From assembly GCA_964355365.1 (NCBI GenBank), contig CAYHEX010000003.1:1-44251 (forward strand): 44,251 nt of DNA, written 5' to 3'. Positions 2,604 to 26,950 of this stretch are shown here, one piece after another. The DNA comes from an uncultured Solibacteraceae bacterium (GTDB lineage Bacteria > Acidobacteriota > Vicinamibacteria > Vicinamibacterales > SCN-69-37). A program made the translations under genes and the position numbers. Every line of letters begins with the position of its first letter. Within the stretch, counting starts at the first letter, position 1. The notes beneath the pieces are model-generated. The model saw nothing but the letters and a program-made list of their open reading frames with translations. It did no database searches and was not told where the DNA came from.

Positions 2604-3215
2604 ATGAACCCACAGACCACCGCGCTCATCCTGGTCGGCTACCAGAATGACTATTTTGCCCAGAACGGCATTCTCCGAGGCGTGATCGAAGAACCGAACC
2701 GCGTCGACAGCGTGCTCGCCAGCTCGCTCGCCTTCATCACCACGATGGCGCCGACGGAGATGACCATCATCGCCACGCCCATCGTGCTCGAACCCGAGTA
2801 CCGCGCGCTCGCCAACTCCGTGGGCATCCTCGACACGATCAAGCACTCCGGCGCCTTCAAGGCGGGCACGGCCGGCGCGGACACGATCCCGGAACTGGCC
2901 GCGTTCGGCGACCGCGTGACGTACGTGACGGGCAAGGTCGGCTTCAACGCGTTCTCGAACACCACACTGGACGCCGTGCTCAAAGCGAAGGGCATCAAGG
3001 ACGTCTTCGTCGCCGGCATGGTCACGTCGCTCTGCATCGACTCGACCGGCCGCGCCGCCTACGAACGCGGCTACAGCGTGAAGATCCTCTCGGACTGCTG
3101 CTCGGCGCGCACGCGCTCCGAACAGGACTTCTTCTGCCAGAACATCTTCCCGCTCTACGGCGGCGTGCTGAACAACGCGCAGGCGATTGAACAGCTGTCG
3201 CTCGTGACGGCCTAG
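2604..3215 (+). CDS. Isochorismatase/cysteine hydrolase family protein (catalytic Asp replaced by Gly)
   Basis: TALILVGYQNDYF (family motif normally LxxDxQNDF), GKVGFNAFSNTTLD (Lys), AGMVTSLCIDSTGRAAYERGY (nucleophile Cys). ATG at 2604. Confidence 0.88.
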   Translation: MNPQTTALILVGYQNDYFAQNGILRGVIEEPNRVDSVLASSLAFITTMAPTEMTIIATPIVLEPEYRALANSVGILDTIKHSGAFKAGTAGADTIPELAAFGDRVTYVTGKVGFNAFSNTTLDAVLKAKGIKDVFVAGMVTSLCIDSTGRAAYERGYSVKILSDCCSARTRSEQDFFCQNIFPLYGGVLNNAQAIEQLSLVTA

Positions 3216-3228
3216 TTCCATCGGCATC

Positions 3229-5526
3229 ATGCGCCCCTCCGCCAGCCACGACGACGCACTGCTCGCCACGGATCTGCACGTCGAGGCCACGTATCGGTTA
3301 ACCGAAGCGTTGGTCGAGGCCGAGAACCGGATGCGGCGGCGCGTCGAGTTGCTGTCGGAAGTGGTCTTCGAAACGGACGCGTCCGGCGCGCTCGTGTTTC
3401 TCAACAGCGCGTGGGCCAGGATCCTCGGCCGGCCAACGGCCGAGTGCCTCGGGCACACGCTGTGCTGCTTCGCCGCCGAGATGGATCGCGATCGGTGCGT
3501 GCTGGCCATGGGGTCGCCGGCGGATCGCGAGGCGGCGCCCCCCCGCCTTCGCCTGCTCCGTGCCGACGGCAGCGCCGCCTGGTTCGAGTTGTCGGCGTCG
3601 CATCTGGCCGACGGCGGCGTGGTCGGCGCCCTGCACGACATCACCAACGAGAAACTCGCGCAGGACGAGCTCGCGAAGCTCTCCCTCGTCGCGAGCTACA
3701 CCGACAACCTCGTCATCATCACCGACCGCGACGGGCGCACCGAGTGGGTGAATCAGGCCTTCATCAACCGGACCGGCTACACGCTTTCCGACATGATCGG
3801 CCGCAAACCCGGCGACCTCCTGCAGGGGCCGGACACCGACACCTCGACCGTTGCCCGCATCGGCGCGCTGCTCGCCGAAGGCCGGTCCTTCAAAGCCGAG
3901 CTGCTCAACTACACGAAGGCCGGCGAATCGTATTGGGTCTCGTTCCAGATCACGCCGATCCGCAACGCGGACGGCCGCGTGGAGCGCTTCGTGTCGATCC
4001 AGACGGATTCCACGGAGTTGCGCCGCACGCAGCGTGAGCTCGAGACCGCCAAAGAACACGCCGAGTCCGCCAGCGACGCCAAGACCCAGTTTCTGGCGAC
4101 GATCAGCCATGAGATGCGCACGCCCCTGAATGTCATTCTGGGGTCCACGGACATCGCGCTCGACGGCGCGGGCACGGACGACGACGTGCAGCCGCATCTC
4201 GAGCGCATCAACGCCAACGCGGAGATCCTGCTGCGTCTCATCAGCGACATGCTCGACGTGTCGAAGATCGAAGCCGGCCAGTTCGACTTCGAGCGCATCC
4301 CGGTCAAGCTGCGCGCCTGTCTGCAGCGCGCGGTATCGCCGATCGCGGACCGCGCGCGCGCGAAGGGCCTGGATTTCCGGCTGACGGTCGGTGAATCGCT
4401 ACCGGCCCAGATCATGGGCGACCCGGATCGCCTGCGGCAAATCGTGACGAACCTCGCCGAGAATGCGATCAAGTTCACCGACGCCGGCTACGTGCGCATC
4501 GACGCGTCGCGCCTCGATGCGGGCTCGAACGACAGCCCCTGCCTCGAAATTCGTGTGGTCGACTCCGGCTCCGGCATTTCGCCCGACGCGCAGGCACGGA
4601 TCTTCAAGCGTTTCGAACAGGGCGACAGTTCGACCACGCGCCGCAAGGGCGGCGCCGGACTGGGCCTCAACATCGTCAAGTCTTTGGTCGAGGCGCTCGG
4701 CGGCCATGTGAGCGTGCGGAGCGCGGTCGGCGCCGGCGCCGACTTCCGCGTGGTGCTGCCGCTCGAAGCCGCCCTCGAGACACCGGCGCGCGCGTCGAAC
4801 GACGGCGACGCGCGACCCGGGGCGGGCACGCCGATGGCGGCGCGGCCCGCGACCGTGCTCATCGCGGAAGACACGGACGCGAACTTCCTCATCCTCGATT
4901 TTTTCCTCACGAAGGCCGGCTACACCGTGAAGCGCGCGTCGACCGGCGTCGACGCCGTGAGGGCGTCGCGGAGTGCGGATCTGGTCCTGATGGACATCGA
5001 GATGCCGGAGATCGACGGCCTCGAGGCGACGCGGCGGATCCGCCGCCACGAGGCCACGTCCGGCCGTCAGCCCGTGCCGATTCTCGCCCTGACCGCGCAC
5101 GCGGTGCAGGGATACCGCGAGCGCTGTCTGTCAGCGGGGTGCTCGGGCTATCTGTCGAAGCCGATCCGCAAACACGCGCTGCTCGACGCCGTGGCCGCAG
5201 CACTCGAGAACGTGCGAGGGGGCGACGCGGACATCGTGCGTGTCAGCGCCGAACTCGCGCATCTGGCGCCGACGTTCGTCGCGCACTGCCGCACCGAGCA
5301 CGGAAGACTGCGCGCCGCGGTGGCGGCGGGCGACTGGATGACCGCCGAGCGCGTGGGCCACAGCCTCAAGGGCGCCGGCCCGTCGATCGGCTTCGACGAA
5401 GTCGGCCGGTTGGGCTGCGATATCGAAGCGGCCGCGCGCGCGGAACATGGGGGCGACGTTCTGCGCGCGCTCAACCGACTCACGATCCATCTCGATCGCG
5501 CGCACATCGTCTGCGTCGCGCAGTAG
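3229..5526 (+). CDS. Cytoplasmic hybrid histidine kinase PAS-PAS-HisKA-HATPase-REC-Hpt
   Basis: Two PAS domains, H box ISHEMRTPLN, N box NLAENAIKFT, G boxes DSGSGI and GAGLGL, REC IAEDT/LMDIEMP/SKP, Hpt GHSLKGA. No TM segments. Confidence 0.93.
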   Translation: MRPSASHDDALLATDLHVEATYRLTEALVEAENRMRRRVELLSEVVFETDASGALVFLNSAWARILGRPTAECLGHTLCCFAAEMDRDRCVLAMGSPADREAAPPRLRLLRADGSAAWFELSASHLADGGVVGALHDITNEKLAQDELAKLSLVASYTDNLVIITDRDGRTEWVNQAFINRTGYTLSDMIGRKPGDLLQGPDTDTSTVARIGALLAEGRSFKAELLNYTKAGESYWVSFQITPIRNADGRVERFVSIQTDSTELRRTQRELETAKEHAESASDAKTQFLATISHEMRTPLNVILGSTDIALDGAGTDDDVQPHLERINANAEILLRLISDMLDVSKIEAGQFDFERIPVKLRACLQRAVSPIADRARAKGLDFRLTVGESLPAQIMGDPDRLRQIVTNLAENAIKFTDAGYVRIDASRLDAGSNDSPCLEIRVVDSGSGISPDAQARIFKRFEQGDSSTTRRKGGAGLGLNIVKSLVEALGGHVSVRSAVGAGADFRVVLPLEAALETPARASNDGDARPGAGTPMAARPATVLIAEDTDANFLILDFFLTKAGYTVKRASTGVDAVRASRSADLVLMDIEMPEIDGLEATRRIRRHEATSGRQPVPILALTAHAVQGYRERCLSAGCSGYLSKPIRKHALLDAVAAALENVRGGDADIVRVSAELAHLAPTFVAHCRTEHGRLRAAVAAGDWMTAERVGHSLKGAGPSIGFDEVGRLGCDIEAAARAEHGGDVLRALNRLTIHLDRAHIVCVAQ

Positions 5527-5580
5527 CACCCAAGTGAAGCCGCCCTCGATCACCCGGCCCTGAGTGCACGCCCGGGCATC

Positions 5581-5702: not shown

Positions 5703-8687
5703 ATGCTGTCCACTGTATTTCGCAGAACGTCGCTCTCAACGAAAGTGGGGCTGCTTTCGCTCACCTTGTGCTTCATCAGCGTGTTGGTGCTGGCCAAGTA
5801 TGCCCAGGGAAAACTGACCGCGGACCTCACGCGAACCACCGGCGCGCAGTTGGCCTCTGCCGCAGCGTACGCCGCGCAAGACGTCAGCCTGGACCTTGCC
5901 ACCCAATTGACCGCCATTCAGTCGAGCGCACGCCTGATCGTCGCCGACGACCTCAGCGGGTCGCTCCGCGACCATTCACGGGCCATGCAGGCGCTCTTCG
6001 ACACCGGCTTCGTGGCCGTCATGGCAAACGGGGCCGTCACCTACCCGCCGTCACCCAACCCCGCGTCGGAGGGCCTGGCGTGGGCGGAACTCGAGAGCGT
6101 GCGCGCCGCCCTGTCCGGAGTTGGCAGCCCCATCGGTCTGATCGATCTCGCCTCTGGACCGAACCGGAAGGCGATCGCGTTCGCCGCCGCCATTCGCGAC
6201 AACGACCACCGGATCGTCGGCGCGCTTGTCGGCCTCTCGTCCTCAACGGAATCACACGTATTCAACCCATTGCTCCAGAAGGCCTACGGTCAGGCCGGCG
6301 TTTTCGTGATCCTGGACCAGGCACGCGGTCTGCTCGGCGAACGCAGCAGCGCGCAGTCCCGACTGTTGGTCGCTGAGCCGGCTCTCCTGAACACGCGCAC
6401 ACTTTGGCCGTCTTGCGGAGGATACCCAACTGAAATTGGGTCGGGTCGATCGGCCACGCTGGTGGCCGGCGCCAAAGTGCAGTCGACAAACTGGTGTGTC
6501 GTCGTGGCCCTGCCTCTGGAAGAGATCCTTGGGCAGTATCAGGCGCTGAATCAGGGCGTGTACTGGCGCGCATTCTACCTCTCGCTCCCGTTCGGCCTGT
6601 TGACGTTCTGGGCCATGCGTCGCGTGCTCACGCCCCTGTCGCAGGCGATCGCCGGACTCGACGCCATCGACATCACCGACCCGCACGTGACAGGCCTGCC
6701 CGAGACGGGTTCAGGTGAAGTTGGCGCACTCCTCAAGAACGTCAATTTCCTGCTCCGCGCGTTGAAGCAGCGGGAACACGCCCTCTGGGAAAGCCAGGCG
6801 CTGTTTCGCGCCTTCGCTGACACCTCTCCGATCCTGATCGTGCAGACCCGAAGTAGCGGCTCTCTGGGTGAAGAACCCCTCACGGAACGGACCGAGTACA
6901 TCAACCCGGCATTCACGGCCATCCTCGGCTACACGATCGAGGACGTCCCCACGATAGGCGACCTCTCCGCGCTGATGTTCCCGGCTCTCGACGGCCAGAC
7001 TTTCGAACCCTTGTCGGCCTGGTGCGCGGCCAAGGATGGCTCCCGGAAATTCCTGTCCTGGCAGCGCGTCATCAGCCCGGGCGACCAGCAATGGGCGTTC
7101 GGACTCGACCTGACGAGCTGCCAGCTGGCGAACGACTCCCTCAACCTGTTCAAGCGCGCAGTTGAGCAGAGCCCGGTGATGATCGAGATCACCGACCGTC
7201 ACTCGAACCTCGTCTATGTGAACCCCAGGCTCGCAGAAGCCACCGGCTACAGCCGGGAGGAATTGCTGGGGCAGAACCCGCGGATCTTCAGCGGCGGCAC
7301 GATGCCACATGACACGGCCGAGGCCATGTACGAAGAGCTGGTGGCGGGCCGCAATTTCCGCTGCGAGATGAAGAACCGCAAGAAGGACGGCACGCTGCAC
7401 GAGGTCTCGATTTCGGTCTCGCCGATTTTTGACGACCAGAACACCCTGATCAACTTCATCGGCATCAAGGAAGACATCTCCGAACGCAACCGGACCGCGG
7501 CGCTCCTCATTGATGCGGGGCTGAACGCTGAGCGCGCGAGCCGAGCCAAGTCGGCGTTCGTGTCCAATGTCAGCCATGAACTGCGCACGCCGATGAATGC
7601 CGTCGTCGGTTTCGCGCAATTGCTCGAGGCCGACGACACCCTCACCCCGCAGCAGCGGGAATACGTGAGCCAGATCACGGCGGGCGGGCAGCACGTGGTG
7701 GCGCTGGTCAATGACGTGCTCGACCTCTCCACGATCGAGGCCGGAGAACTGCGCGTGACCGTCGAGCCATTCGACCTCGGCGCCGTCATCGCCGAATGCG
7801 AAGCGCTGATTCAACCGCTGGCGGACGACCGGGGCCTCACGCTGCGCACCTCGTGTGCCGCGAACACCAGTGCCGTCGGCGACCGTCTACGCGTGAAACA
7901 GGTCGTGCTCAATCTCATGTCGAACGCCGTCAAGTTCAACGTCCCGAATGGCGACCTGACGGTCGATGTGGCGCAGATCGGGTCGGATCGTGTGCGGATC
8001 ACCGTATCGGATACCGGCGAGGGCATTGCCGCCGCCGACGTGCAGGAGGTCTTCAAGGCGTTCTCTCGACTCCACGCCAAGCACAAACACGTGGAGGGCA
8101 CGGGGATCGGGCTGACGATCAGCCGACAATTGGTCGAGTTGATGGGCGGCACACTGACTCTGTCGAGCCAAATCGGCGTGGGCAGCCAGTTTCGCGTCGA
8201 GCTGGCCTCCGCGGCGGCCCTGCCAGTCGCCCGAGCGACCGCCACCGCTGAGCTGAAAGGCCCCGGGCAATCGACGCGCCGCCATCGCGTGCTGTGCATC
8301 GACGATAGCCCCACCAATCAGGCGTTGATCAAGGGCATCTTCAAGCTGCGGCCGCAGATCGTGCTGGTGCGGGCCGTGACCGGTGCAGATGGCATCGCCT
8401 CGGCGCGCGCCGAGCGCCCCGACCTGATGCTGATCGACATCAATTTGCCGGACATGACCGGCCACCAGGTGCTGCACACGTGCCGGGCTGACGAGCTGCT
8501 GTGCACCGTGCCGGCCATCGCGGTCTCGGCCGACGCGCTCGCGTCGAACGTGGCGCACGGTCTCGAGATGGGGTTCGACGACTACCTGACCAAGCCGCTG
8601 GATCTACAGCGTTTTCTGGCCGTGATCGATTCCTACCTGTCCGACCAGGTGACGACGCTCGATCACGCCGTCGGACCGCCATGTTGA
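5703..8687 (+). CDS. Membrane hybrid histidine kinase: TM-Cache-like-TM-HAMP-PAS-PAS-HisKA-HATPase-REC
   Basis: Two TM helices flank an extracytoplasmic domain. HAMP-like PLSQAIAG...EVGALLKNVN, PAS with [54 protein letters not shown]. Confidence 0.92.
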   Translation: MLSTVFRRTSLSTKVGLLSLTLCFISVLVLAKYAQGKLTADLTRTTGAQLASAAAYAAQDVSLDLATQLTAIQSSARLIVADDLSGSLRDHSRAMQALFDTGFVAVMANGAVTYPPSPNPASEGLAWAELESVRAALSGVGSPIGLIDLASGPNRKAIAFAAAIRDNDHRIVGALVGLSSSTESHVFNPLLQKAYGQAGVFVILDQARGLLGERSSAQSRLLVAEPALLNTRTLWPSCGGYPTEIGSGRSATLVAGAKVQSTNWCVVVALPLEEILGQYQALNQGVYWRAFYLSLPFGLLTFWAMRRVLTPLSQAIAGLDAIDITDPHVTGLPETGSGEVGALLKNVNFLLRALKQREHALWESQALFRAFADTSPILIVQTRSSGSLGEEPLTERTEYINPAFTAILGYTIEDVPTIGDLSALMFPALDGQTFEPLSAWCAAKDGSRKFLSWQRVISPGDQQWAFGLDLTSCQLANDSLNLFKRAVEQSPVMIEITDRHSNLVYVNPRLAEATGYSREELLGQNPRIFSGGTMPHDTAEAMYEELVAGRNFRCEMKNRKKDGTLHEVSISVSPIFDDQNTLINFIGIKEDISERNRTAALLIDAGLNAERASRAKSAFVSNVSHELRTPMNAVVGFAQLLEADDTLTPQQREYVSQITAGGQHVVALVNDVLDLSTIEAGELRVTVEPFDLGAVIAECEALIQPLADDRGLTLRTSCAANTSAVGDRLRVKQVVLNLMSNAVKFNVPNGDLTVDVAQIGSDRVRITVSDTGEGIAAADVQEVFKAFSRLHAKHKHVEGTGIGLTISRQLVELMGGTLTLSSQIGVGSQFRVELASAAALPVARATATAELKGPGQSTRRHRVLCIDDSPTNQALIKGIFKLRPQIVLVRAVTGADGIASARAERPDLMLIDINLPDMTGHQVLHTCRADELLCTVPAIAVSADALASNVAHGLEMGFDDYLTKPLDLQRFLAVIDSYLSDQVTTLDHAVGPPC

Positions 8688-9457
8688 GGTGGTGTTGCTA
8701 TTGCCAGCAGTTCCAGGGAGAGGCGCCCCCTTACGACAATCTCGTCTCCACCCATGGATGCTGCGCGTCCTGCGAGGCCCAGGCCATTGATTCCACCGAG
8801 TCCGATTTGGCGCACGCGCGAATCTTGGCGCGCCTGCAAGCAAGACTCGGGAAGGCGGGACAAAGCGGTGACCTTGTGGCCGCCGGACATCTCATCGAAG
8901 AGGCCAGCGCCGACCACGTGAGGGCCGTTGACGTCCTGATGGGGATTGTCGCGCCGTTGCTGGACCAGATCGGCAAGGACTGGGAACGCGGCTTCATCAC
9001 CGTGGCCGAAGGGCATCCGTTCATCGCCTTCAGCGAAGCGCTGGTGGAGTTAGTCACCACCACCCGGTTCCAGGACCAGCCTGCCGACGCTCGGCCCTTG
9101 GACCGCCCGGACGCTTTCCTCATGACCGCCGACGGCAATCGCCATACCTTGGCCGTTCGCATTCTGAGCTTGTGGCTGATGGACTCTGGCATGCGGACTC
9201 GCGTGCTTGACTCAGGTCTCCCGCTCAAGGACTTGCTCGCGCGGATTGGTCACGACCGGCCCCGGTTGCTCCTCATCTCGATGGCGCTTGCTGAGCAACG
9301 TCCGGGCGTGGTCACGCTGGTCGAGTGCCTCGCGGCATTACCCGAACCGGTCCGTCCGAGGGTCATCGTCGGGGGCTACGCCGTCAAACTCGGCCACGTC
9401 GACGCGATTCCCGGAGCGGAGCTCATCGCCGACATCAGTAGCCTGCGATTGCTTTGA
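8681..9457 (+). CDS. Cobalamin (B12)-binding domain protein, CarH/AerR-like, with N-terminal Cys/His zinc-finger-like motif
   Basis: ATG 8681 overlaps the kinase stop. N-terminal WCCYC...THGCCASC; helical cap PLLDQIGKDWERGFITVAEGH (CarH W-x9-EH motif, here GH); Rossmann domain GNRHTLA, LLLISMA, VIVGG. Confidence 0.82.
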   Translation: MLRWCCYCQQFQGEAPPYDNLVSTHGCCASCEAQAIDSTESDLAHARILARLQARLGKAGQSGDLVAAGHLIEEASADHVRAVDVLMGIVAPLLDQIGKDWERGFITVAEGHPFIAFSEALVELVTTTRFQDQPADARPLDRPDAFLMTADGNRHTLAVRILSLWLMDSGMRTRVLDSGLPLKDLLARIGHDRPRLLLISMALAEQRPGVVTLVECLAALPEPVRPRVIVGGYAVKLGHVDAIPGAELIADISSLRLL

Positions 9458-9510: not shown

Positions 9511-10185
9511 TTACGCGTCTTCGGGCGCCACGAGTTGGTGGTGCACGGCAAACAGTGCCAGTTCCAGCCGATTCGACACGCCCGTTTTGTCGAACGCGTT
9601 GGTGAGATGACGCTTCACGGTCTCTTCACTGATGCCCAGCCTCGTGGCGATATCGCGATTGGTGCCGCCCTGGACGACCGTGCGGACCACGTCGAGTTCG
9701 CGCGGCGTCAGCCCGAAGGTGTTCTTCGGCGCCGGCGCGGCTTCCGCCATGAGTTCTTTGAGCACGCCCACAAGGTTGATCACCTCGCCGCCGCGCAGCC
9801 AGTAGTGCCCGGCCATGACGGAGCGAATGCTCGCCGTCAGGTCTTCCGCCACGGCCGTCTTCAACACGATGCCGCGCGCGCCCAACTGCAGCGCCTCGAG
9901 CACCTGCTTGCGCTCGATCTCGCTCGTGAGCAGAATCGTGCGCAGATACGACGACGCGTCGGTGAGTTCGCGCAGGGCGTCGAGCCCGGGCATGCGCGGC
10001 ATCGACAGATCGAGCAACAGCACGTCAGGCTTCAGTTGCCCGATCAACTTCACGGCGTCCTCACCGTCCGACGCCTCGCCAACGACCGTCAACCCGGGCT
10101 GTGACGCCAGCAGGTTGCGCACGCCGATGCGCACCACGGGGTGGTCGTCAGCCACGACGATTCGCACCGGTCCGGACGTACTCAT
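9511..10185 (-). CDS. NarL/FixJ family response regulator (REC + LuxR HTH)
   Basis: IVVADDHPVVRIG, LLLDLSMP, LTPRELDVV...TNRDIATRLGISEETVKRHL. Start overlaps the upstream kinase stop by 4 nt. Confidence 0.95.
   Translation of the reverse strand: MSTSGPVRIVVADDHPVVRIGVRNLLASQPGLTVVGEASDGEDAVKLIGQLKPDVLLLDLSMPRMPGLDALRELTDASSYLRTILLTSEIERKQVLEALQLGARGIVLKTAVAEDLTASIRSVMAGHYWLRGGEVINLVGVLKELMAEAAPAPKNTFGLTPRELDVVRTVVQGGTNRDIATRLGISEETVKRHLTNAFDKTGVSNRLELALFAVHHQLVAPEDA
9672..9702 (+). repeat. 31-bp exact direct repeat, copy 2 (inside the NarL gene)
   Basis: Identical to 5581-5611, 4091 bp away. Confidence 0.9.
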
Positions 10186-13169: not shown

Positions 13170-13732
13170 GGGACCGTGGGCGCCGGCGGCTCGAACGTCA
13201 CATCGAACTCGTCATGATCCGCACCGTCATCGCGGCGCACGACGTGCGCCACGGTCACGCGCACGGCGAACATCGTCCCGAGACCGCGGACCAGCCCGAT
13301 CACCATCGGCGAGAGGCCGGGCCGCGTGGACTGGTAATGCAGGCGGAGCCGATCCTCGGCGACGTCCGTGCACCAGAAGGACGGCGGCGCCAGCGCGGGG
13401 AACCCGACCGCAACGTTCGAATGCAGATCGTGGAGATTCAGCATGAATTCACGGAAGGTGCGGCCAGCACGCTGGAAGAGTTCGCCGTAGCCGCGCGACC
13501 CGGTGTAGAGCGTCCAGTATTCGCCGAAGGCTTCGAGCAGTTGATCGGCCGGCAGTTTGAGCGTCTCGCTGGCGGCGGCCACCAGTTGATACGTGACCGC
13601 ATCGGGGTACGACTGCATGCTCAGAAACATCTCGTCGGTCACGCCGGCGCGCTGCTTGATCGTCGTCCAGGCCGCCACCCCGAAGCGCTCCGTAATCAAT
13701 TCTTCCACTGCCTGATTGACCAATCCGTACAT
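13166..13732 (-). CDS. hnoX: H-NOX (heme NO/O2-binding, HNOB) protein
   Basis: MYGLVN start, FGEYW, proximal His in NLHDLH (His104), PPSF proline, YxSxR heme motif (YQSTR). GGAGG upstream of ATG 13732. Confidence 0.95.
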   Translation of the reverse strand: MYGLVNQAVEELITERFGVAAWTTIKQRAGVTDEMFLSMQSYPDAVTYQLVAAASETLKLPADQLLEAFGEYWTLYTGSRGYGELFQRAGRTFREFMLNLHDLHSNVAVGFPALAPPSFWCTDVAEDRLRLHYQSTRPGLSPMVIGLVRGLGTMFAVRVTVAHVVRRDDGADHDEFDVTFEPPAPTVP

Positions 13733-18700: not shown

Positions 18701-18921
18701 AGGCGCTGACCGCCGGTGACGCGGCCGGCGCGCGTCGACAGGCGCACTCGATCAAGGGCGCGTCGTCGGACGTGGGCGGCGATGCGCTGCACGACGTCGC
18801 CGCCGAGATGGAACACGCCGCGGCCGCGGGCGACCTCGACGCCGTGCGCGCGCAGATGGACACGCTCAACGACCAGTTTCAGGCACTGCGCATCGCGCTG
18901 CGCCGCGAGCTATTTGACTGA
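15760..18921 (+). CDS. Membrane hybrid histidine kinase: multi-TM-3xPAS-HisKA-HATPase-REC-Hpt
   Basis: About 6 N-terminal hydrophobic helices, three PAS domains, [33 protein letters not shown], Hpt AHSIKGA. Confidence 0.93.
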
Positions 18922-19317
18922 CGACGGCTGCAACTGTTCGAGTGCGGCGCTGACGCGCGCCCGCAGTTCTTTGAACGAGAACGGCCGCGATAGATAGTCG
19001 CTCGCGCCCGCACCGATACAGCGTTGGCGGTCGCCCGGCATGGCCAGGGCCGTGGCGGCCAGCACCCATGCCTGCGACACGCGCGCGTCGTGGTGCGCGC
19101 GCAGACGGCGCAGCACCTCCAGGCCGTCCACGCCCGGCATCTGAATGTCCAGCACGATCACGTCCGGATGGTGCTGCTCGGTCAGGATCAGCGCCTCCAG
19201 CCCGCCGGACGCCTCGAGCACGTGCCAGCCCTGCCCGCCCATGCCGAGCACCGCCAGTTGACGATTGCGCTCGTCATCGTCGACGACGAGGATCGTGGGC
19301 ACGCGTGCATCAGCCAT
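18910..19317 (-). CDS. Single-domain response regulator (DivK-like REC)
   Basis: ILVVDDD, VLDIQMP, TALAMPGDRQRC. The conserved KP is RP here (LSRPF). Confidence 0.9.
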   Translation of the reverse strand: MADARVPTILVVDDDERNRQLAVLGMGGQGWHVLEASGGLEALILTEQHHPDVIVLDIQMPGVDGLEVLRRLRAHHDARVSQAWVLAATALAMPGDRQRCIGAGASDYLSRPFSFKELRARVSAALEQLQPSSVK

Positions 19318-20464
19318 GGGCCGACTCCGTGTCCGCCGACAACGAACGCACCGGCAGCGTCACCGTAAAACGCGAGCCCTCGCCCAGCGTGCTCTCGGCC
19401 CGCGCGGTGCCGCCGTGAAGCTCCGCGAGCTCGCGCACGAGGAACAAGCCGAGCCCGGTCCCATGGTGGCTCCGAGCCAGCGATCCGTCGACCTGATGGA
19501 ACATCTGAAAGAGACCGCCGAGTTTGTCGGCGGGAATACCGCAACCGCTGTCGTCCACCGCGATACAGATCTGGTCGCCCTCACGCCGGATCTCCACGCT
19601 GACGCGGCCGTACGGCGGTGTGAACTCCACGGCATTGGTCAACAGGTTGACGACGATCTGCAGCACGCGGCGCTCGTCGGCGACAAAGACGAGCGTGGCC
19701 GGGTGCACGCCCGAGCTCAGCGTGATGTGCCGCTCGTCGGCCCGCTGCAACACGATCATGACGGCGGACGCGAGCAGCGACGCCGCGGACACCTCGCTCG
19801 GCCGCAGCTCGAAGCCTGTGGTCACCGCGGTCGAGACGTCCAGCAGGTCGTCGATCAGGCGGCGGAGATGCTGCCCGCTGTGCACGAGCGTGGCGAACGT
19901 GGCGCGGAGCGACGGATCGTCGCCAACGGGCAACGCGTCTCCCAGCAGTTCGGTCGCCCCCTGGATCGCGTGCAACGGCGATCGCAGTTCGTGCGACACA
20001 CGCGCCAGAAATTCGTCCTTCAACCGCCCGATGCGCCGCAGTTCCGCGATCGCGTCGTCCAGATTGGCGGCGACCTTCGACATCTCGGCGCGCTGCCGGA
20101 ACACGTCGCTCACATCGCGGCAACAGCAGACCATGTGACCGTCGGCCACCGACAGGCTGATCCAGTACCGCGAATGACGGCCGTCTTTGAAGCGACCGTA
20201 CGATTCGCCGGACCAGTGCCCCTGCGCGGCGAGCGCGGGGAACGCCGTGCTTTCGAAGCCCCGCTGTTGTGCCTCGTCATAGAGCCGTTTCCACGAACAC
20301 CCGATCAACTCACCCGGTTCGTAACCGTACATCCGGGCATGGATGGCGTTCATGTAGACGTACTCGCCGGCCGCGTCGAGAATCGCCAGCCCTTCGGTCA
20401 TCGAATCCAGCGCCCGAAAGCCGATATTCAAGCTCAGTGCTTCCCGTCTCTGGGTCGGCATCAT
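19310..20464 (-). CDS. PAS-HisKA-HATPase histidine kinase
   Basis: PAS (MNAIHARMYGYEPGELIGCSW), VSHELRSPLH, NLLTNAVEFT, DSGCGI, GTGLGL. ATG 20464 inferred. Confidence 0.9.
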   Translation of the reverse strand: MMPTQRREALSLNIGFRALDSMTEGLAILDAAGEYVYMNAIHARMYGYEPGELIGCSWKRLYDEAQQRGFESTAFPALAAQGHWSGESYGRFKDGRHSRYWISLSVADGHMVCCCRDVSDVFRQRAEMSKVAANLDDAIAELRRIGRLKDEFLARVSHELRSPLHAIQGATELLGDALPVGDDPSLRATFATLVHSGQHLRRLIDDLLDVSTAVTTGFELRPSEVSAASLLASAVMIVLQRADERHITLSSGVHPATLVFVADERRVLQIVVNLLTNAVEFTPPYGRVSVEIRREGDQICIAVDDSGCGIPADKLGGLFQMFHQVDGSLARSHHGTGLGLFLVRELAELHGGTARAESTLGEGSRFTVTLPVRSLSADTESAHG

Positions 20465-20474
20465 GTGTTCCTCG

Positions 20475-21587
20475 TCATCGCGAAGCCGCGGGCCCGTCTT
20501 CCGGGGCGCCGATCGGCAGCCACACCACAAACTCCGACCCCACCCCGACCGTCGTGGTCAGCGTGACGGCGCCGCCCAGCATCTCGACGAGGCCCTTGAC
20601 CACGGGCAATCCCAGCCCGGTTCCACCGAACGAGCGAGCAAACGCGGTCGCCACCTGTTCGAACGGCTCGAAGATCAACTGCGCCACTTCGGCGCGCATG
20701 CCGATGCCGGTGTCGCGCACCGAGATCGTCACGCCCCGCCCAGGCGTACAGGCCACGGCCACAAACACGGAGCCGCCGGGACCGGTGAACTTGATCGCGT
20801 TGTCGAGCAGGTTGGCGATGATTTGTTTGAGACGGCGCGCGTCGGTCCAGACCCCCGTCGGATCGACACCCTCGGGCGAATAGAGCCGGATCGATTTCGC
20901 CGCGGCCGCATGCCGCACGAAGGCCAGGCTGCTCTCGAGCACGTCGCCGATCGACACCAGCGAGATGTCGAGCACGACCTTGCCGCTCCGCAGTCGCATG
21001 ATGTCGAGCACGTCGTTGATGAGCGCCAACAGATGCCGCGCGCTGACGTCGACGGTTTGCGTGAGCTCGCGGCGGCGGACGATGTCGCCGTCGAGCTCAT
21101 CGAGCAGGAGCTCGGCGGAACCCAGAATCGCGTGCAGCGGCGTGCGGAGTTCGTGCGAAAACGTGGCGATGTCCAGATCGTGCTCGTGCACGCCCTGGAC
21201 CGGGTCGGCGGCCGCCGTCGCGCGCCCGCTCATCGGGGACACCACCATCAACACCGAAGTGACGACCGCCCCGGCGCCGCGCAAGGGCGTGAGACTGACG
21301 GTGGCCGCCAGTTCCGTGCGGTCGGGGTGGAGAAAGCTCTGGGAGACGACGCGGTCTTCCTGCAGGGCCCGCAGTTGGTGCGGCAGATCGGTGCGCAGCG
21401 GGCCGCCGCCGAGAAACACCGGCAGCGCACAGTTGCGCATGTCGGCGGGCGTGACGCCCAGCAGCACCGCCATGCGATCGCTCGCCATCAGAATCTGGCC
21501 GGCCGCAGACACGAGCATCACCGCAGCGGGCGACCGCACGAACGACTGGCGTTCGGCTGACGGTTCGCGCCGGCCCGGAATGCTCAT
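20475..21587 (-). CDS. Histidine kinase with degenerate PAS-like N-terminus
   Basis: FSHELRTPLH, NLLDNAIKFT, DTGIGM, GTGLGL. Start at ATG 21587 or GTG 21590, overlapping the upstream stop. Confidence 0.88.
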   Translation of the reverse strand: MSIPGRREPSAERQSFVRSPAAVMLVSAAGQILMASDRMAVLLGVTPADMRNCALPVFLGGGPLRTDLPHQLRALQEDRVVSQSFLHPDRTELAATVSLTPLRGAGAVVTSVLMVVSPMSGRATAAADPVQGVHEHDLDIATFSHELRTPLHAILGSAELLLDELDGDIVRRRELTQTVDVSARHLLALINDVLDIMRLRSGKVVLDISLVSIGDVLESSLAFVRHAAAAKSIRLYSPEGVDPTGVWTDARRLKQIIANLLDNAIKFTGPGGSVFVAVACTPGRGVTISVRDTGIGMRAEVAQLIFEPFEQVATAFARSFGGTGLGLPVVKGLVEMLGGAVTLTTTVGVGSEFVVWLPIGAPEDGPAASR

Positions 21588-22630
21588 CACGACACCGCAG
21601 CGCCGTCTGTGCGAAAGCTCGTCGCTTCGATGGCGTCGGCGACGCGTGGATCCACGCCGGCGTGCGGATCGCGCAACCGCATCATGGCGTCCATCGCGGC
21701 GGGACGCGGCTCGTAGCCGCGCAACGCGCTGCCGTCGATCGCCTCGCGCCACACCAGCATGCCCTTCAGAATGCGCACGGCCATCTCCATCGACGACGGC
21801 GTGGCCGTCTGATGCGCATCGGCGCGGTAGGTCGCGGAGAGTCGCGCGACGAGTTCGCCGGCCACCGGCATGCCAAGCGCCGACATGGCCCAGCGGCTTT
21901 CCTCGGGATAGCCCAGCTCGATCAACTCGAAGGCTTCGCGCGTCGAGAGACCCGCCACATCACCTGGCTGCGGATACACGCGTCGCCCGATTTCACTGAA
22001 GCACACCGCGCGTTCGAGCTCCGGAACGAGCGCGGCGTCGAGGGCGAGGCTCTTGGCCACCGCCGCGGTGTGCCGGCTGAACCCGCCGAGCCGCGCGGCG
22101 TCCTCGCCGGGCAGCAACGCGGCCGCCATCCGCTCGTTGGCGCGGAACGAGTACGACAGCACTTCGCGGATCTTCGCGAGCAACGCGTACCGCCGACCTG
22201 TGATGTCGGCGAGCGCGGCGGGCGGCCAGACCGCGGCCGGCTTCACCGCGGACGGCGCGAACGGCAGCGTGGCCAGCCCATGGCGCAAATCGCGACGCGA
22301 GTACGGCTTGACGAGATACCCCGAGATGTTCTCGCGGAGGGTGGCCGCGCCGGGCAGATCGTCGATGCCGGTGGCAAAGAACACGCGGGTCGACGGCACC
22401 GCCGCCTGCAGCTGCGATGCGAGCCAGACGCCGTCGTGTGCACCGGCGAGGTTCACATCGACAACGGCGAGCTCAGGGCGCAGCGATTTCGCCGCCGACA
22501 GCCCGGCCTCTGCCGTCGGATGCGCGGCGACCGTCCATCCCTCGTCCGCGAGCCACCCCGCCACACATTCACGAATGACATCGTCATCCTCGACGAGCAG
22601 GGCGGTGGGTCGAGCGTGTTGGGTCGCCAT
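21587..22630 (-). CDS. Response regulator, REC + degenerate HD-GYP-like output domain
   Basis: REC LLVEDD/VVDVNL/VKPY. C-terminal LERAVCFSEIGR, AVRILKG and GVDPRVADA align by eye with HD-GYP segments but lack HD and GYP. Confidence 0.75.
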   Translation of the reverse strand: MATQHARPTALLVEDDDVIRECVAGWLADEGWTVAAHPTAEAGLSAAKSLRPELAVVDVNLAGAHDGVWLASQLQAAVPSTRVFFATGIDDLPGAATLRENISGYLVKPYSRRDLRHGLATLPFAPSAVKPAAVWPPAALADITGRRYALLAKIREVLSYSFRANERMAAALLPGEDAARLGGFSRHTAAVAKSLALDAALVPELERAVCFSEIGRRVYPQPGDVAGLSTREAFELIELGYPEESRWAMSALGMPVAGELVARLSATYRADAHQTATPSSMEMAVRILKGMLVWREAIDGSALRGYEPRPAAMDAMMRLRDPHAGVDPRVADAIEATSFRTDGAAVS

Positions 22631-22750: not shown

Positions 22751-23506
22751 CTAGGGCCGGGTTGGCTGGACGCGGGGCCGTCGCGCATCGACCAGGCTGC
22801 GACTGATGTCCTCGAACACCAGTCGACAGCCGGACGGCCGCTCGACCAGCACCTCGTAGGTCGCCGCGAGGCCACCCGTGTCGGGCCGCCGGCTCATCAG
22901 GCGACAGAACCCACTGTCCATGGGCGTCGCCAGCGTCGCCCACGAGTCGGCCGGCAGCAGCGAGTGCCGTTGGCCCAGGTGAAGCGCCAGATCAAGACCA
23001 CGCGACACGGGCGGCAGCCCGAAGGCCTCGGCCGCCACCGGCGACGCGGCAATCACGCGACCGGCCGCATCCAGATCCACCCACAGCGCGAGATCCTCCT
23101 TCGCGGGCGCGGCATCCTGACCGGCGACCGGGTGCCGGCAGCGCCACACGCTGCTGATGCGCTCCAGCAGTTCGCGCGCGCAGAACGGCTTCGGGATGAA
23201 ATCGTCAACCCCGGCGAAGAACCCATTGAGGCGCTCGTCGTCGTCATACGCGGCACTCATGAGGATGATCGGCACGGTGGCGTTGATCGGCGCCGCGCGC
23301 AGTTCACGCGCCGCCGACACGCCGTCGAGCCCGGGCATCCGCACGTCGAGCACGATGGCATCGAACGCGTGACGCGTCGCAGCATTCACGGCCTGCGCGC
23401 CGTCCATCGCCTGCTGCACGTTCCAGCCGGCCGCCTTCATGTTGCTGCCGAGGATCAGGTGGATCACCGGGTCATCATCAGCGATCAGTACTGTGGGCGC
23501 CGTCAT
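22751..23506 (-). CDS. Response regulator, REC + PAS-like C-terminal domain
   Basis: VLIADDD, VLDVRMP, PKPF. C-terminal WVDLDAAGRVIAASPVAAEAFG...LVFEDIS is PAS-like. Confidence 0.85.
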   Translation of the reverse strand: MTAPTVLIADDDPVIHLILGSNMKAAGWNVQQAMDGAQAVNAATRHAFDAIVLDVRMPGLDGVSAARELRAAPINATVPIILMSAAYDDDERLNGFFAGVDDFIPKPFCARELLERISSVWRCRHPVAGQDAAPAKEDLALWVDLDAAGRVIAASPVAAEAFGLPPVSRGLDLALHLGQRHSLLPADSWATLATPMDSGFCRLMSRRPDTGGLAATYEVLVERPSGCRLVFEDISRSLVDARRPRVQPTRP

Positions 23507-24159
23507 TTGATGGGCCGATCGATGTGGGTCAGGCCATGGCGAATGGCGAAACGGACGAGTGACGCGACGTCGTGGAGATTCAAGCGGCGCATCAACTCGG
23601 TGCGGTGCGTGTCGACGGTGCTGCTGCTCAACTTCAGACGGAAGGCGATTTCCTTGGTGGAGAGTCCTTCCGCAATCAGCTGCAGCACTTCGCGTTGGCG
23701 CCGGCTGAGCGTACCGAGCGGATCGACGTCAACCGACCCGCCGGCCGCCCAGGCCGCGAAATAGTCGCCGACGGGCGACACGAAGTAGCTCTGACCGCGG
23801 CACACGGCGCGGATCGCGGCGAAGAGCTCCTCGACGGCCGCGCCCTTGAGCACGTAACCCTTGGCGCCGGACTTGACCGCGCGGCGCGCCGTCACTTCGT
23901 CGTCGTGCTGCGACAGCACGATCACCTTCGTGCGCGGAAACTCTTCCGACAGACGAGCCGTCGCTTCGAAACCATTGAGGCGCGGCATGCCGATGTCCAT
24001 CAGCACGAGGTCGGGCCCCAGGTCGCGCACGAGCTGCACCGCCTCGATGCCGTCCGCCGCCTCGCCCACCACGTCGATCGTGTGGTCGCGCGTGAGCAAG
24101 GCTCGGATCCCGGCCCGGATCAGGGCCTGATCATCAGCGATAACGACACGAAGTGGAAT
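23503..24159 (-). CDS. NarL/FixJ family response regulator (REC + LuxR HTH), start codon atypical
   Basis: In-frame IPLRVVIADDQALIRAGIRALL lies upstream of the ORF-track TTG at 24099; also LMDIGMP and LSRRQREVL...STKEIAFRLKLS. No ATG/GTG/TTG before the REC beta1 strand. ATT at 24159 follows GGAAAGAGG. Confidence 0.88.
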   Translation of the reverse strand: MPLRVVIADDQALIRAGIRALLTRDHTIDVVGEAADGIEAVQLVRDLGPDLVLMDIGMPRLNGFEATARLSEEFPRTKVIVLSQHDDEVTARRAVKSGAKGYVLKGAAVEELFAAIRAVCRGQSYFVSPVGDYFAAWAAGGSVDVDPLGTLSRRQREVLQLIAEGLSTKEIAFRLKLSSSTVDTHRTELMRRLNLHDVASLVRFAIRHGLTHIDRPIK

Positions 24160-24200
24160 ACGGCCTCTTTCCTGGCAGTCCGCCTGAAAGCCTCGTCTCG

Positions 24201-25691
24201 CTAGCTGCTCAAGACACTCGAACGATCGGTCACACCGACGCCATCTGCGGCGTCAGCCATTTCACTCCTGGGGCACGGGATGCCAAGCGTCACCGTGGTC
24301 CCCACACCTACGTTACTCTCAACGCTCACGTGGCCGCCCTGGAGCGTGATGAGCCGGTGTACCATGGCCAACCCCAATCCCGTGCCGCCGCGGCCGCTGC
24401 GCGTCGTGAAATACGGCTCGAAGATGCGCTCCTGCACCTCGGCGGACATGCCGCATCCGGTGTCGCGCACGCTCAGACACATCTCGGTGCCGGTCGGCGC
24501 GACTTCGCTGTGCCGCTCCTTCACCGTCAGCTCGACGGTTCCGGCGCCGCTGATCGCGTCCCGCGCATTCGCGACCAGATTCATCACGATGCGCTCCATC
24601 TGTAGAGGATCGGCAATCACGGGGCGACCTTCTGTGCGGATGGTCGTCACGAGCGCAACCTCCCCGAGCAGGTGCTGCAGCGACGGTTCGAGCTGCTTGA
24701 GGAGCGCCGACAGTTCCACGGGCTGGAGGTTGAGTGTGGCCACGCCCTTGGCCAGCGTGGTCGTGCGCTTCACCAGCTCAAACGCCTGCTCCGCACTGGC
24801 GTCGACGGTCGCGAGAATCGCCTGCACCTCGGGCTGGCCGCCGATCATCTTGCCGACCAACTCCACGCCGCCCTGAATCGCCATGAGGTAGTTGCCGAAG
24901 TCGTGCGCCAATCCGGCCGACGCCGCGAGCGCGGCCTGCACGCGTTCGTTCTGCTGTTTGCGCGCCTCGGCGCGCAGCCGCGCGTCGGCGCTGCGCAGCG
25001 ACACGATCAGCGACGGCCGCTCTTCCCACTCGGTCGCGGCAAACATGCCATCCATCGTGACGACCCCGCCGCGCGCGCCGGCGATCTTGACCATCAGGCT
25101 CGCAGACTGCCCAGGGTTGAGCGCCGAGAGCCGCTGGGCGATGGCCTCACGTCCATCCGGGATGACGGCCTCCAGAAAACCGCCATGCAGGTCGAGTTGT
25201 TCGCCCGCGGCGACATTCGCGAGCGACACGGCCCAGGTCTCACGATCCACGAGCATCGTCGGATCGGGCGAGGCGAGAAACACCATCTCGAATTGCTCGC
25301 GCGCATTCAGCAGACGGCGAAACCGGTTCATCTTGACGATCGTGCGCAGCCGCAGCTGCAGTTCGAGACGATCGAAGGGCTTCGAGATGAAATCGTCGGC
25401 GCCCGCCTCCAGACCCGCCAGCCGCGACGCACGATCTTCGAGCGCGCTGATCATGACGACCGGCACACCGAAGAGGGCTTTGGTTTTGCGGATCTGCTCG
25501 CACACGGCGAAACCGTCCATGAACGGCAGCATCACATCGAGCAACACGGCATCGGGACGTTCACGCTCGGCGATCTCGATGCCTTCCTCACCCGTCATGG
25601 CGGTCAGCACCCTGAACTCTCCGCCCAGCGCATGACGAATCGTCGTCACGCTCGACGGTGTGTCATCGATGACCAGAATCGTGGGTGTCAT
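24201..25691 (-). CDS. Hybrid REC-PAS-like-HisKA-HATPase kinase (NtrB/CckA-type H box)
   Basis: N-terminal REC ILVIDD/LLDVMLP/SKPF; LAHDFGNYL; NLVANARDA; DTGCGM; IFEPYFTT; GTGLGL. Confidence 0.92.
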   Translation of the reverse strand: MTPTILVIDDTPSSVTTIRHALGGEFRVLTAMTGEEGIEIAERERPDAVLLDVMLPFMDGFAVCEQIRKTKALFGVPVVMISALEDRASRLAGLEAGADDFISKPFDRLELQLRLRTIVKMNRFRRLLNAREQFEMVFLASPDPTMLVDRETWAVSLANVAAGEQLDLHGGFLEAVIPDGREAIAQRLSALNPGQSASLMVKIAGARGGVVTMDGMFAATEWEERPSLIVSLRSADARLRAEARKQQNERVQAALAASAGLAHDFGNYLMAIQGGVELVGKMIGGQPEVQAILATVDASAEQAFELVKRTTTLAKGVATLNLQPVELSALLKQLEPSLQHLLGEVALVTTIRTEGRPVIADPLQMERIVMNLVANARDAISGAGTVELTVKERHSEVAPTGTEMCLSVRDTGCGMSAEVQERIFEPYFTTRSGRGGTGLGLAMVHRLITLQGGHVSVESNVGVGTTVTLGIPCPRSEMADAADGVGVTDRSSVLSS

Positions 25692-25848
25692 ACCAAGTGT
25701 CCTTCCACCATCAGGTGTTTCTGTTGCCTCGTGAACCTATCACCATTGTCGGCCGGCCTCCGGCCCACGACTAGTCGGCGAATGAACGATCCGGGCACCA
25801 TGTGAACACCCGACCCCTCGCGCATCGCCAGCCTGCTACCGTCCTCGG

Positions 25849-26556
25849 GTGGCTCGCGACACCGACAGCCGACCGCCCGAAATGCTGGCGCTGCTCAATC
25901 ACGAACTCCGCACGCCCCTGACGACCATCCGCAGCGCGATCGGGCTGCTGAAGAGCGGCGTCACCGGCCCGATGACCGAGGAGTCCGCCGAGATTCTGGA
26001 TCTCGCCGAGCGCAGCGTGTTCCGCCTGCAGGAAGTGGTCAACGACCTCCTGTACGTGCAGCGGCTCGAGCCCGGCGCCGCCACGCCGCTGGAACTGAGG
26101 ACCGTGGCGCTCGATCGCATCATCGCGCGCGCAGTCGCGCAGGCGTCGGCGACGGCACGATCGGTCGGCGTCTCCATCGCGACCACGGCAACGGATCGTC
26201 GGGTGCGCGCGAACGCCACGTATCTGGCCGACGCGCTGACGCGGCTCCTGCTCAACGCGCTCCAGCACTCGCCGCTCCACGGCACGGTCGACATCCGCTG
26301 CCGGCTCCGGCGCGCAGGCGTGCGCATCGAGGTCTGCGATCGTGGTCCGGGACTGCCGGAGGGCTTTGGCGCGCGGGGGTTTCACGCGTTCGAACAAGCG
26401 TCGACCGGCGATGCACGCAGTCATAACGGGCTCGGCATCGGACTGGCAATCAGCGAACAGATCGCGCAGGCGCACCATGGGAGACTCGGTGCCGCGTCGC
26501 GGCGCGGCGGCGGCGCCATCTTCTGGATCGAACTGCCGGTGGTCCCGAAACCCTGA
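25849..26556 (+). CDS. Sensorless HisKA-HATPase histidine kinase
   Basis: LNHELRTPLT about 17 aa from the start, RLLLNALQHS, DRGPGL, GLGIGL. Paralogous to the kinase core of 13851..15314. Confidence 0.82.
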   Translation: MARDTDSRPPEMLALLNHELRTPLTTIRSAIGLLKSGVTGPMTEESAEILDLAERSVFRLQEVVNDLLYVQRLEPGAATPLELRTVALDRIIARAVAQASATARSVGVSIATTATDRRVRANATYLADALTRLLLNALQHSPLHGTVDIRCRLRRAGVRIEVCDRGPGLPEGFGARGFHAFEQASTGDARSHNGLGIGLAISEQIAQAHHGRLGAASRRGGGAIFWIELPVVPKP

Positions 26557-26575
26557 CGCGTTCGATCCGCCCCGA

Positions 26576-26950
26576 CTAGTTGGCCGTGGCCGCGCGACAG
26601 AGGCGCTCGAGAACGTCCAACGGCGCGAACGGTTTAGGCACGTAGTCGACCACACCGGCGAAGAACCCATTCATCTGCGCCGTTTCGCTGGCCGCGGCGC
26701 TCATGAGGATGATCGGCGCCATGCATTCGACCCCGCGGGCGCGCAACGCCCGCGCCGTGGCCACGCCGTCAGGCCCCGGCATCTTCACGTCCAGCAAGAT
26801 CACATCGAACGCGTGTTGGAGGGCAGCCTCGACAGCCTGCCTGCCGTCCATCGCCTTTCGAACCTTCCAGCCGGCTCCGGACAGCACGGGTCCAAGGATC
26901 AGGTGAATGGCGGGATCATCATCAACGATCAACACGGTGCGTTTGCGCAT
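26576..26950 (-). CDS. Single-domain response regulator (REC)
   Basis: C-terminal part of ORF 26576..27535: MRKRTVLIVDDD, LLDVKMP, PKPF. Close paralog of the REC in 22751..23506. Confidence 0.9.
   Translation of the reverse strand: MRKRTVLIVDDDPAIHLILGPVLSGAGWKVRKAMDGRQAVEAALQHAFDVILLDVKMPGPDGVATARALRARGVECMAPIILMSAAASETAQMNGFFAGVVDYVPKPFAPLDVLERLCRAATAN

Follow-up and report, generated by a model that had tools for sequence, protein, structure and literature searches.

Positions 2604-26950 of the window, contig CAYHEX010000003.1 of an uncultured Solibacteraceae bacterium, are occupied by an island of 19 back-to-back genes (g01-g19; Table 1), which Pfam and open reading frame (ORF) analyses resolve into nine genes for histidine kinases, seven for response regulators, and three for small partner proteins. 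With a probability of about one half, this island is a real and unusually large multikinase phosphorelay locus, accreted around a conserved core consisting of the H-NOX protein g07 with its hybrid kinase g06, the hydrolase-like protein g01 with its hybrid kinase g02, and a NarL-type regulator. A multikinase phosphorelay is a known kind of system.

Gene content and layout of the island

The window is a complete contig (C3; 44,251 bp) of a 4.44-Mb metagenome-assembled genome (MAG), which comprises 509 contigs and is 90% complete. Genes were mapped by Pfam scans, ORF reading, and the GC content at codon positions, and these bore out the content listed in an earlier note on the same sequence, namely 19 consecutive genes including nine kinases (three with Hpt), seven regulators, and three partners. 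The kinases are g02, g03, g06, g08, g10, g12, g13, g17, and g18, and four of these (g02, g03, g06, and g10) are hybrid kinases, all of which except g03 carry a fused Hpt domain. The three partners were correctly described in that note as lying each next to a hybrid kinase: g01, an isochorismatase-fold protein, ends 13 nt before the start of g02; g04, a Zn-ribbon/B12 protein, overlaps g03 by 7 nt; and g07, an H-NOX protein, overlaps g06 by 4 nt. The regulators comprise two NarL-type proteins (REC-GerE; g05 and g16), which are the only DNA-binding outputs detected in the island by Pfam, two proteins with a receiver (REC) and an extra C-terminus (g14 and g15), and three single-domain receivers (g09, g11, and g19), so that the 'several single-domain RECs' noted earlier had to be corrected to just three of the seven regulators. 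Nine H-boxes, twelve receiver Asp residues, and three Hpt His residues are all present in the translations. No stand-alone Hpt was found in the island by Pfam, and none of the 10 island proteins searched against NCBIfam reached a curated cut-off. Because stop and start codons overlap or nearly touch, the likely operons are g01-g02, g03-g04, g07-g06-g05, g08-g09(-g10), g17-g16-g15, and g14-g13-g12-g11.

The island accounts for 0.55% of the 4.44-Mb assembly, yet it contains 9 of the 68 HATPase_c matches and 12 of the 102 REC matches, and every other contig has two HATPase_c matches at most. The Poisson expectation for HATPase_c is 0.37 (P ~3e-10), a calculation that assumes independence, which is violated by operons, and that applies to an assembly in 509 contigs. 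The clustering of kinases at the island is more than chance would give.

The g01-g02 pair

A metagenome scan for g01 returned 80 loci, among which adjacency to g02 was counted in the 70 with at least 400 nt of downstream sequence. A g02-like N-terminus begins less than 200 nt 3' of g01 in all 70. In an unbiased clustering of the ORFs around the metagenome g01 genes, g01 and g02 alone were conserved and other neighbours varied widely; no conserved transporter or other pathway gene was found near g01 by this clustering. In a protein search, the g01 family comprised 1666 proteins at E<=1e-30, the best 120 of which are 75-99% identical, and the closest named homologues are labelled Acidobacteriota.

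The assignment of g01 to the isochorismatase fold is based on PF00857 (113.6 bits; cut-off, 27), and its best match in the PDB is 3kl2 (E = 6e-30). The Asp-Lys-Cys catalytic triad of this fold is incomplete in g01: Asp is replaced by Gly in the window, in a genome of the same genus (G002), in both copies of a genome from another family of the same order (G062), and in all 80 metagenome homologues, in which the motif at this site reads GYQND (61) or GFQND (19). G12, K111, and C144 are invariant in 42 aligned sequences, and the mean column identity over 42 aligned pairs is 79% for g01 versus 60% for the kinase N-terminus. The residues noted earlier for an Asp-less cysteine hydrolase are borne out in g01, Lys and Cys being kept, and with Gly at the Asp site g01 is probably not a standard hydrolase despite its fold. 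In G062, a tandem g01 paralogue (L127, 12081-12689; 53% identical) lacks the triad Lys and Asp and keeps the Cys.

The second PAS domain of g02 best matches LOV domains (E = 1.6e-19). The photoactive Cys of LOV domains lies in the motif GxNCRFLQ. The corresponding site of g02 reads G-R-K-P-G-D-L-L-Q-G, without a photoactive Cys and with the following Arg replaced, and P194 and G195 in this region are invariant in 42 homologues. The FixL-, NifL-, and LOV-like PAS labels given to the island kinases hold at the level of sequence (for the first two, see below), except that the LOV-like domain is without its photoactive Cys. A complex prediction for g01 with residues 1-285 of g02 scored 0.02, compared with a mark of 0.32, and is used neither for nor against binding.

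Co-occurrence of the H-NOX pair with g01-g02

The protein g07 was identified as an H-NOX by PF07700 (HNOB; 161.4 bits; cut-off, 25.5) and matches Nostoc Alr2278 with an E-value of 4e-57. In H-NOX proteins, the proximal His and the Y-x-S-x-R motif provide the heme ligand and bind the heme propionates, and both align between g07, Alr2278, and the beta-1 subunit of sGC. The genes g07 and g06 are co-oriented, and g06 and g05 also overlap by 4 nt. A PAS domain of g06 best matches the heme-PAS of FixL (Bradyrhizobium japonicum FixL, E = 2e-15), with His aligned on His in the '...r-h-d/e...ry' stretch.

In the metagenome loci with at least 3 kb of upstream sequence (36 loci), g01-g02 is immediately preceded in five by genes for an H-NOX (45-49% identity with g07) and for an HNOBA kinase. 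One contig, L199, has a five-gene cassette, in which genes encoding HNOB, HNOBA-PAS-GAF-PAS-HK-REC-Hpt, isochorismatase, PAS-PAS-HK-REC-Hpt, and REC-GerE proteins (Pfam) follow one another on a single strand (HK, histidine kinase). By its domain content, this cassette is a compact form of g07, g06, g01, g02, and a NarL regulator. That the H-NOX/HNOBA-kinase pair directly precedes g01-g02 in these 5 of 36 loci, together with the L199 cassette, supports the view that the H-NOX input and the Asp-less hydrolase-like input belong together.

Conservation of the island in relatives

In a DNA search of the island against five genomes of the same genus, synteny was found in G002 only, and the other four gave scattered kinase-core matches. 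G002 contains, as a single-contig string, g01-g02 convergent with g05, a kinase core-REC-Hpt gene, g15, g16, and then a TrkA-type channel gene. The kinase core-REC-Hpt protein is 64% identical to residues 467-992 of g06 and is encoded without the sensor part and without an H-NOX; within this string, a single hybrid kinase-Hpt gene is thus flanked by the genes of both NarL regulators. The only hint of a shared terminal regulator comes from gene order in L199 and G002, which suggests one. Orthologues in G002 are 63% (g02), 73% (g05), and 51% (g15) identical. The window is collinear with G002 out to the channel gene, located at 34361-36064 in the window, and contains in addition g03-g04, g07 and the sensor half of g06, g08-g14, g17-g19, and several non-signalling genes. 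Because the core in G002 is compact and collinear, the remaining island genes look like accretion. An assembly chimera was ruled out, as the GC content is even along the window (0.63-0.70) and the contig is collinear with G002.

The cluster in G062 contains a g05-like NarL gene (61%), a stand-alone Hpt gene, genes for three hybrid kinases, two copies of g01, and g02 (68%); the g01-g02 pair is thus present in both G002 and G062. Among 101 relatives, H-NOX genes were detected in 6; the orthologues are strong in three of these (G055, G058, and G077), which keep the H-NOX/HNOBA-kinase pair. Full-length orthologues of g06 (55-58%) adjoin the H-NOX gene in G055 and G058.

The Zn-ribbon/B12 protein g04

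The PAS domain of g03, the kinase adjoining g04, best matches the FAD-PAS domains of MmoS (6e-28) and NifL (1e-19). The true start of g04 is at 8681. As described earlier under the name of a Zn-finger-B12 protein, g04 has an N-terminal four-Cys ribbon (CxxC...HGxCxxC) followed by B12-binding domains: PF02607 (B12-binding_2) scored 32.5 bits (cut-off, 23) and PF02310 (B12-binding) 23.5 bits, under its cut-off of 32.1. The best NCBIfam match is CarH, also under its cut-off. The cap motif of CarH is W-x9-E-H, accompanied by a lower axial His. The consensus of the g04 family has W101-x9-E-H and an invariant N153-x-H155, in which Asn takes the place of the usual acidic residue; g04 itself reads G-H at the end of the cap motif. 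H25, C28, C31, W101, N153, and H155 are invariant in the family alignment, and C5 and C8 are nearly so. The AlphaFold model of g04 has a pLDDT of 80 overall and ~60-65 in the ribbon region, and the top Foldseek matches of this model (8jbt, 8c37, 5c8d, and 3whp; E = 1e-10 to 2e-9, probability 1.00) are CarH-type cobalamin-binding domains and a photocobilin. Judged by its predicted fold and by the motif of its family, g04 is probably a CarH-like cobalamin module. Neither a MerR-type DNA-binding domain nor another helix-turn-helix (HTH) was found in g04 by Pfam or alignment; it is therefore related to the sensor module but is not a member of the CarH/LitR family.

When g04 was searched against proteins sampled across the phylum, only distant B12-domain matches were obtained (best E = 2e-12), which left the Zn-ribbon uncovered. 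In a large protein database, the family comprises 93 proteins at E<=1e-5, most of them matching over nearly the full length; 21 aligned members are 35-56% identical to g04, and members occur in Acidobacteriota, Bradyrhizobium, Steroidobacteraceae, Myxococcota, and Gemmatimonas. Clustering of the neighbours of the B12-family genes gave a protein with a heme-oxygenase domain as the sole conserved neighbour. The gene for this protein overlaps the start of the B12-family gene in 21 of 54 loci (within L067-L114), e.g. at L070, where the partner is encoded at 6742-8004 and the B12 protein at 8001-8750. The partner (~421 aa) consists of an N-terminal Heme_oxygenase domain and a C-terminus of ~220 aa without assignment, which is possibly a photoglobin. 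It was not found by tblastn in the window's own genome, which is 90% complete. Two-component genes are located within a few kb in ~9 of the 54 loci, and neither g01 nor H-NOX lies near the B12-family gene in any of them. Because the B12 family pairs elsewhere with a heme-oxygenase protein and not with a kinase, the kinase link in the island is lineage-specific.

Proposed relay and alternative explanations

From the observed gene content, residues, and conserved adjacencies we infer the following scheme, in which each step of binding or phosphotransfer, each cofactor, and each signal is given conditionally. The heme H-NOX g07 would control the HNOBA-GAF-heme-PAS kinase g06, which would be a known kind of nitric oxide (NO)/redox input. 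By analogy, g01, having lost the catalytic Asp, would act with g02 and most likely regulate it, as H-NOX does its kinase, and may be a ligand- or redox-responsive partner. The regulators g05 and probably g16 would take phosphate from the fused REC-Hpt ends of g02 and g06 and change transcription. The receiver of g03 is without an Hpt, and g03 therefore needs an Hpt in trans, which it might borrow from g02 or g06. In this lineage, g03 may have acquired the B12 protein g04 as an input of its own, one that probably depends on light or B12. The g08-g09, g10, g11-g14, and g17-g19 genes look like additional two-component modules, added in this lineage.

Several points weigh against the reading of the island as a relay accreted around a core. 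Taken in its entirety, the island is not conserved. In G055, G058, and G077, no island gene except the kinase was found near the H-NOX gene (~33-40 kb around each). Orthologues of g01 are rare, being present in 2 of 401 phylum-sampled genomes and in 3 of 101 relatives (G000 included). The five H-NOX-linked loci hold near-duplicates (L138/L139), and L146 and L150 are similar, so that they represent perhaps three independent lineages, and a NarL-type gene, ~30% identical to g05, is near g01-g02 in just 3 of the 80 metagenome loci (L141, L194, and L199). A kinase gene is directly 5' of the B12-family gene in none of the 54 loci besides the window. The strong conservation of g01 fits a working enzyme equally well, gene adjacency by itself is no proof of binding, and the organism is uncultured and known as a MAG. 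Because the island is not conserved whole, the view of it as one integrated system was supported only in part: the H-NOX and g01 inputs co-occur and the NarL genes of G002 flank a kinase-Hpt, whereas the 24-kb set is not conserved and the B12 family stands apart.

The island may instead be a place where duplication, insertion, and rearrangement have piled up two-component modules that are independent and insulated from one another, so that each kinase is private and nothing converges. Insulation is the general rule for two-component pathways. The mosaic nature of the island agrees with this, since G002 has a compact core and carries its orthologues of g08 (51%) and g09 side by side on another contig (C40), the H-NOX-bearing relatives keep the pair only, and the neighbours of g01-g02 vary widely beyond the pair; other small contigs with multiple two-component genes (e.g. 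C164 and C169) also occur in the same genome. However, private modules fit poorly with a g03 receiver that has no Hpt in an island with no stand-alone Hpt, with an H-NOX/kinase pair that repeatedly adjoins g01-g02, in one case within a cassette of five genes on the same strand that has just one regulator, and with two NarL genes that flank one kinase-Hpt in G002. We regard this explanation as plausible but somewhat unlikely.

Another alternative concerns g01, which might be a working enzyme that uses a substrate-assisted mechanism or another base and makes or destroys a small molecule sensed by the PAS domains of g02, or might be a co-regulated metabolic gene. In favour of this, the triad Lys and Cys never vary, g01 is extremely conserved (mean column identity, 79%), and 3kl2, the nearest solved relative, has Glu at the catalytic Asp position, which shows that this residue can change while the fold is retained; more distant homologues in G083 and G098 have Glu as well. 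Against it, Gly cannot serve as a general base, and all 80 homologues have it; a strict one-to-one adjacency to a kinase (70/70) would be uncommon for an enzyme of metabolism; neighbour clustering gave no conserved transporter or other pathway gene; and the G062 paralogue has also lost the Lys. An enzymatic role of this kind is improbable. A single network of the 19 genes, with g05 and g16 as the common targets of heme-NO, heme-O2, flavin, cobalamin, and reactive-Cys inputs, is very improbable. In its favour, the genes are contiguous, four hybrid kinases have three Hpt domains between them, and the NarL proteins are the only DNA-binding outputs in the island. Against it, the B12 family is without g01 or H-NOX in 54 of 54 loci, most island genes are absent from the G002 and G062 clusters, the LOV-like PAS is without its Cys, and the cofactors are putative.

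As an extension of the accreted relay, the isochorismatase-fold proteins with Gly, Lys, and Cys at the triad sites (G-K-C) could be a widespread, so far undescribed family of accessory kinase sensors, a counterpart of H-NOX. They would trap a small molecule or react with one, or would react through the Cys with reactive nitrogen or oxygen species, and so switch a dedicated PAS hybrid kinase. Together with the H-NOX/HNOBA-kinase pair, they would form a two-sensor relay onto NarL, extended in the island by a cobalamin input. This proposal is tentative, and the odds lean against it. Few accessory proteins are known to control histidine kinases, H-NOX and NosP among them, and each has opened a field; g01-g02 is a candidate for another, in which a pseudo-enzyme-like cysteine protein is tied to a kinase in every locus examined and sometimes lies beside an NO sensor. 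As a pair of soluble proteins, it is directly testable. The island would also illustrate how a compact relay grows by inserted sensor/kinase modules, among them a CarH-like B12 module captured by a kinase, and it bears on the integration of gas, redox, and possibly light signals by bacteria of soils and freshwaters.

Other island genes and flanking regions

Features of all island genes are summarized in Table 1. The second PAS domain of g08 best matches the heme-PAS of FixL (E = 3e-11), with the His aligned in two of the three alignments shown. The C-terminus of g14 gave no Pfam match at E up to 1. Language-model features indicate a likeness of this region (21590-22258, minus strand) to HD_5/HD-GYP with a score of 0.90, a level reachable by chance, and the usual H-D pair reads S-E by eye; it could be a degenerate c-di-GMP phosphodiesterase-like output. 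The sole Pfam match of the g15 C-terminus in a search to E of 1 was PAS_8 (E = 0.19). For g16, no ATG, GTG, or TTG codon gives a full receiver, and an ATT codon sits 4 nt after an AAAGAGG box (24141-24203, minus strand). In the G002 orthologue of g16 (L033, 4060-4200), too, no Met precedes the receiver, and the non-canonical start may thus be conserved. The kinase core g18 is related to that of g08 and is divergent from g19; among the island receivers, g19 is closest to that of g15.

Table 1. Genes of the signalling island (positions in the window)
Gene	Position	Strand	Features	Basis
g01	2604-3215	+	isochorismatase-fold protein, Gly at catalytic Asp site, Lys and Cys kept (G-K-C)	PF00857
g02	3229-5526	+	N-terminal helix, PAS1, LOV-like PAS2 (no Cys), HisKA-HATPase-REC-Hpt	Pfam
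g03	5703-8687	+	membrane hybrid kinase: Cache-like periplasmic part (weak match), HAMP-like, MmoS/NifL-like PAS, HK, REC, no Hpt	Pfam
g04	8681-9457	+	Zn-ribbon and CarH-like B12-binding module, 258 aa	Pfam, alignment, model
g05	9511-10185	-	NarL-type regulator (REC-GerE), final gene of g07-g06-g05 operon	Pfam
g06	10182-13169	-	HNOBA-GAF-FixL-like PAS-HisKA-HATPase-REC-Hpt hybrid kinase	Pfam
g07	13166-13732	-	stand-alone H-NOX, sGC/Nostoc type	PF07700
g08	13716-15314	+	PAS-PAS(FixL-like)-HisKA-HATPase; true start probably near 13842	Pfam
g09	15311-15700	+	single-domain receiver, 4-nt overlap with g08	Pfam
g10	15760-18921	+	polytopic membrane N-terminus, three PAS, HK-REC-Hpt hybrid kinase	Pfam
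g11	18910-19317	-	single-domain receiver, final gene of minus-strand string g17 to g11	Pfam
g12	19310-20530	-	PAS-HK	Pfam
g13	20475-21752	-	PAS-HK; start 21752 or ATG at 21587	Pfam
g14	21587-22630	-	REC and ~220 aa without Pfam match	Pfam
g15	22751-23506	-	REC and ~125-aa C-terminus; REC paralogous to g19	sequence comparison
g16	23503-24159	-	NarL-type regulator (REC-GerE), possible non-canonical ATT start at 24159	Pfam
g17	24201-25691	-	REC-linker-HisKA(weak)-HATPase kinase	Pfam
g18	25849-26556	+	kinase core only (HisKA-HATPase), no sensor domain	Pfam
g19	26576-26950	-	single-domain receiver	Pfam

Beyond the island, a gene at 27024-30239 (minus strand) encodes a secreted-looking protein of 1071 aa with MBG (YGX-type) repeats and C-terminal short repeats rich in Asp, His, Gly, Lys, and Cys; its GC content at the three codon positions is unusual (GC1 0.56, GC2 0.57, and GC3 0.90). 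The region 34361-36696 (minus strand) contains a TrkA-N/TrkA-C potassium-channel gene and then a gene for a PilZ-domain protein, and in G002 the channel gene directly adjoins g16. Genes for an HTH_3 protein and a protein with an AbiEii-type nucleotidyltransferase toxin domain (31704-34269) lie between the island and the TrkA gene, suggesting a small mobile or defence insert.

Comparison with known systems

The earlier note did not recognize the combination as a described system. This holds for the g01-g02 pair, as no paper describing an isochorismatase-like/histidine-kinase module was found in a full-text literature search; it does not hold for H-NOX/hybrid-kinase relays and photoglobin/B12 bundles, both of which are in print. 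H-NOX genes lie beside kinase genes, and the Silicibacter kinase is a hybrid that needs an Hpt in a multicomponent network, according to PMC4436077 and PMC6759604; a hybrid kinase whose signal passes through an Hpt is inhibited by NO-bound H-NOX (PMC4436077). Known relays of this kind are HnoX/HnoK with three regulators in Shewanella oneidensis, SiliH-NOX/SiliHK/SiliHpt/SiliDGC in Silicibacter, and H-NOX/HqsK, which leads into LuxU-LuxO, in Vibrio. The island shares with them a stand-alone H-NOX adjoining a kinase gene. In contrast to them, g06 contains HNOBA, GAF, and FixL-like PAS domains and its own fused Hpt, the operon has a NarL-type regulator in place of LuxO or a c-di-GMP enzyme, g07 belongs to the Nostoc/sGC type of H-NOX, and a second accessory-protein/kinase pair (g01-g02) accompanies the H-NOX pair in some genomes.

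Like CarH/LitR proteins and photocobilins, g04 has the B12-binding_2 and B12-binding fold, with structural matches of CarH type. Heme-oxygenase/photoglobin architectures and two-component associations are described in PMC8717448, and photocobilins in PMC10979010; the coupling of B12-family genes to a Heme_oxygenase gene (21/54 loci) fits both accounts. However, g04 contains neither MerR nor photoglobin and has the N-terminal four-Cys ribbon instead. In the main text of PMC8717448 and PMC10979010, the terms 'zinc' and 'Zn-ribbon' are absent and a four-Cys ribbon is unmentioned. Also unlike photocobilins, g04 has a hybrid kinase gene as its partner, and it has G-H where its own family has E-H.

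The protein g01 shares the fold, the Lys, and the nucleophile Cys with isochorismatase-like cysteine hydrolases (nicotinamidase, RutB, YcaC, biuret hydrolase, and 3kl2), and differs from them in the invariant Gly in place of Asp/Glu, in the PAS hybrid kinase gene that always comes after its own, and in that it reached no NCBIfam cut-off. Multikinase networks are represented in Pseudomonas by GacS/RetS/LadS/HptB. In Vibrio, several quorum-sensing kinases feed LuxU (PMC6759604). The island resembles these networks in that its inputs are spread over several hybrid kinases, the kinases outnumber the Hpt domains, and there are few outputs that bind DNA, and it differs from them in that its components are clustered, three of its inputs are separate partner proteins, and convergence is inferred.

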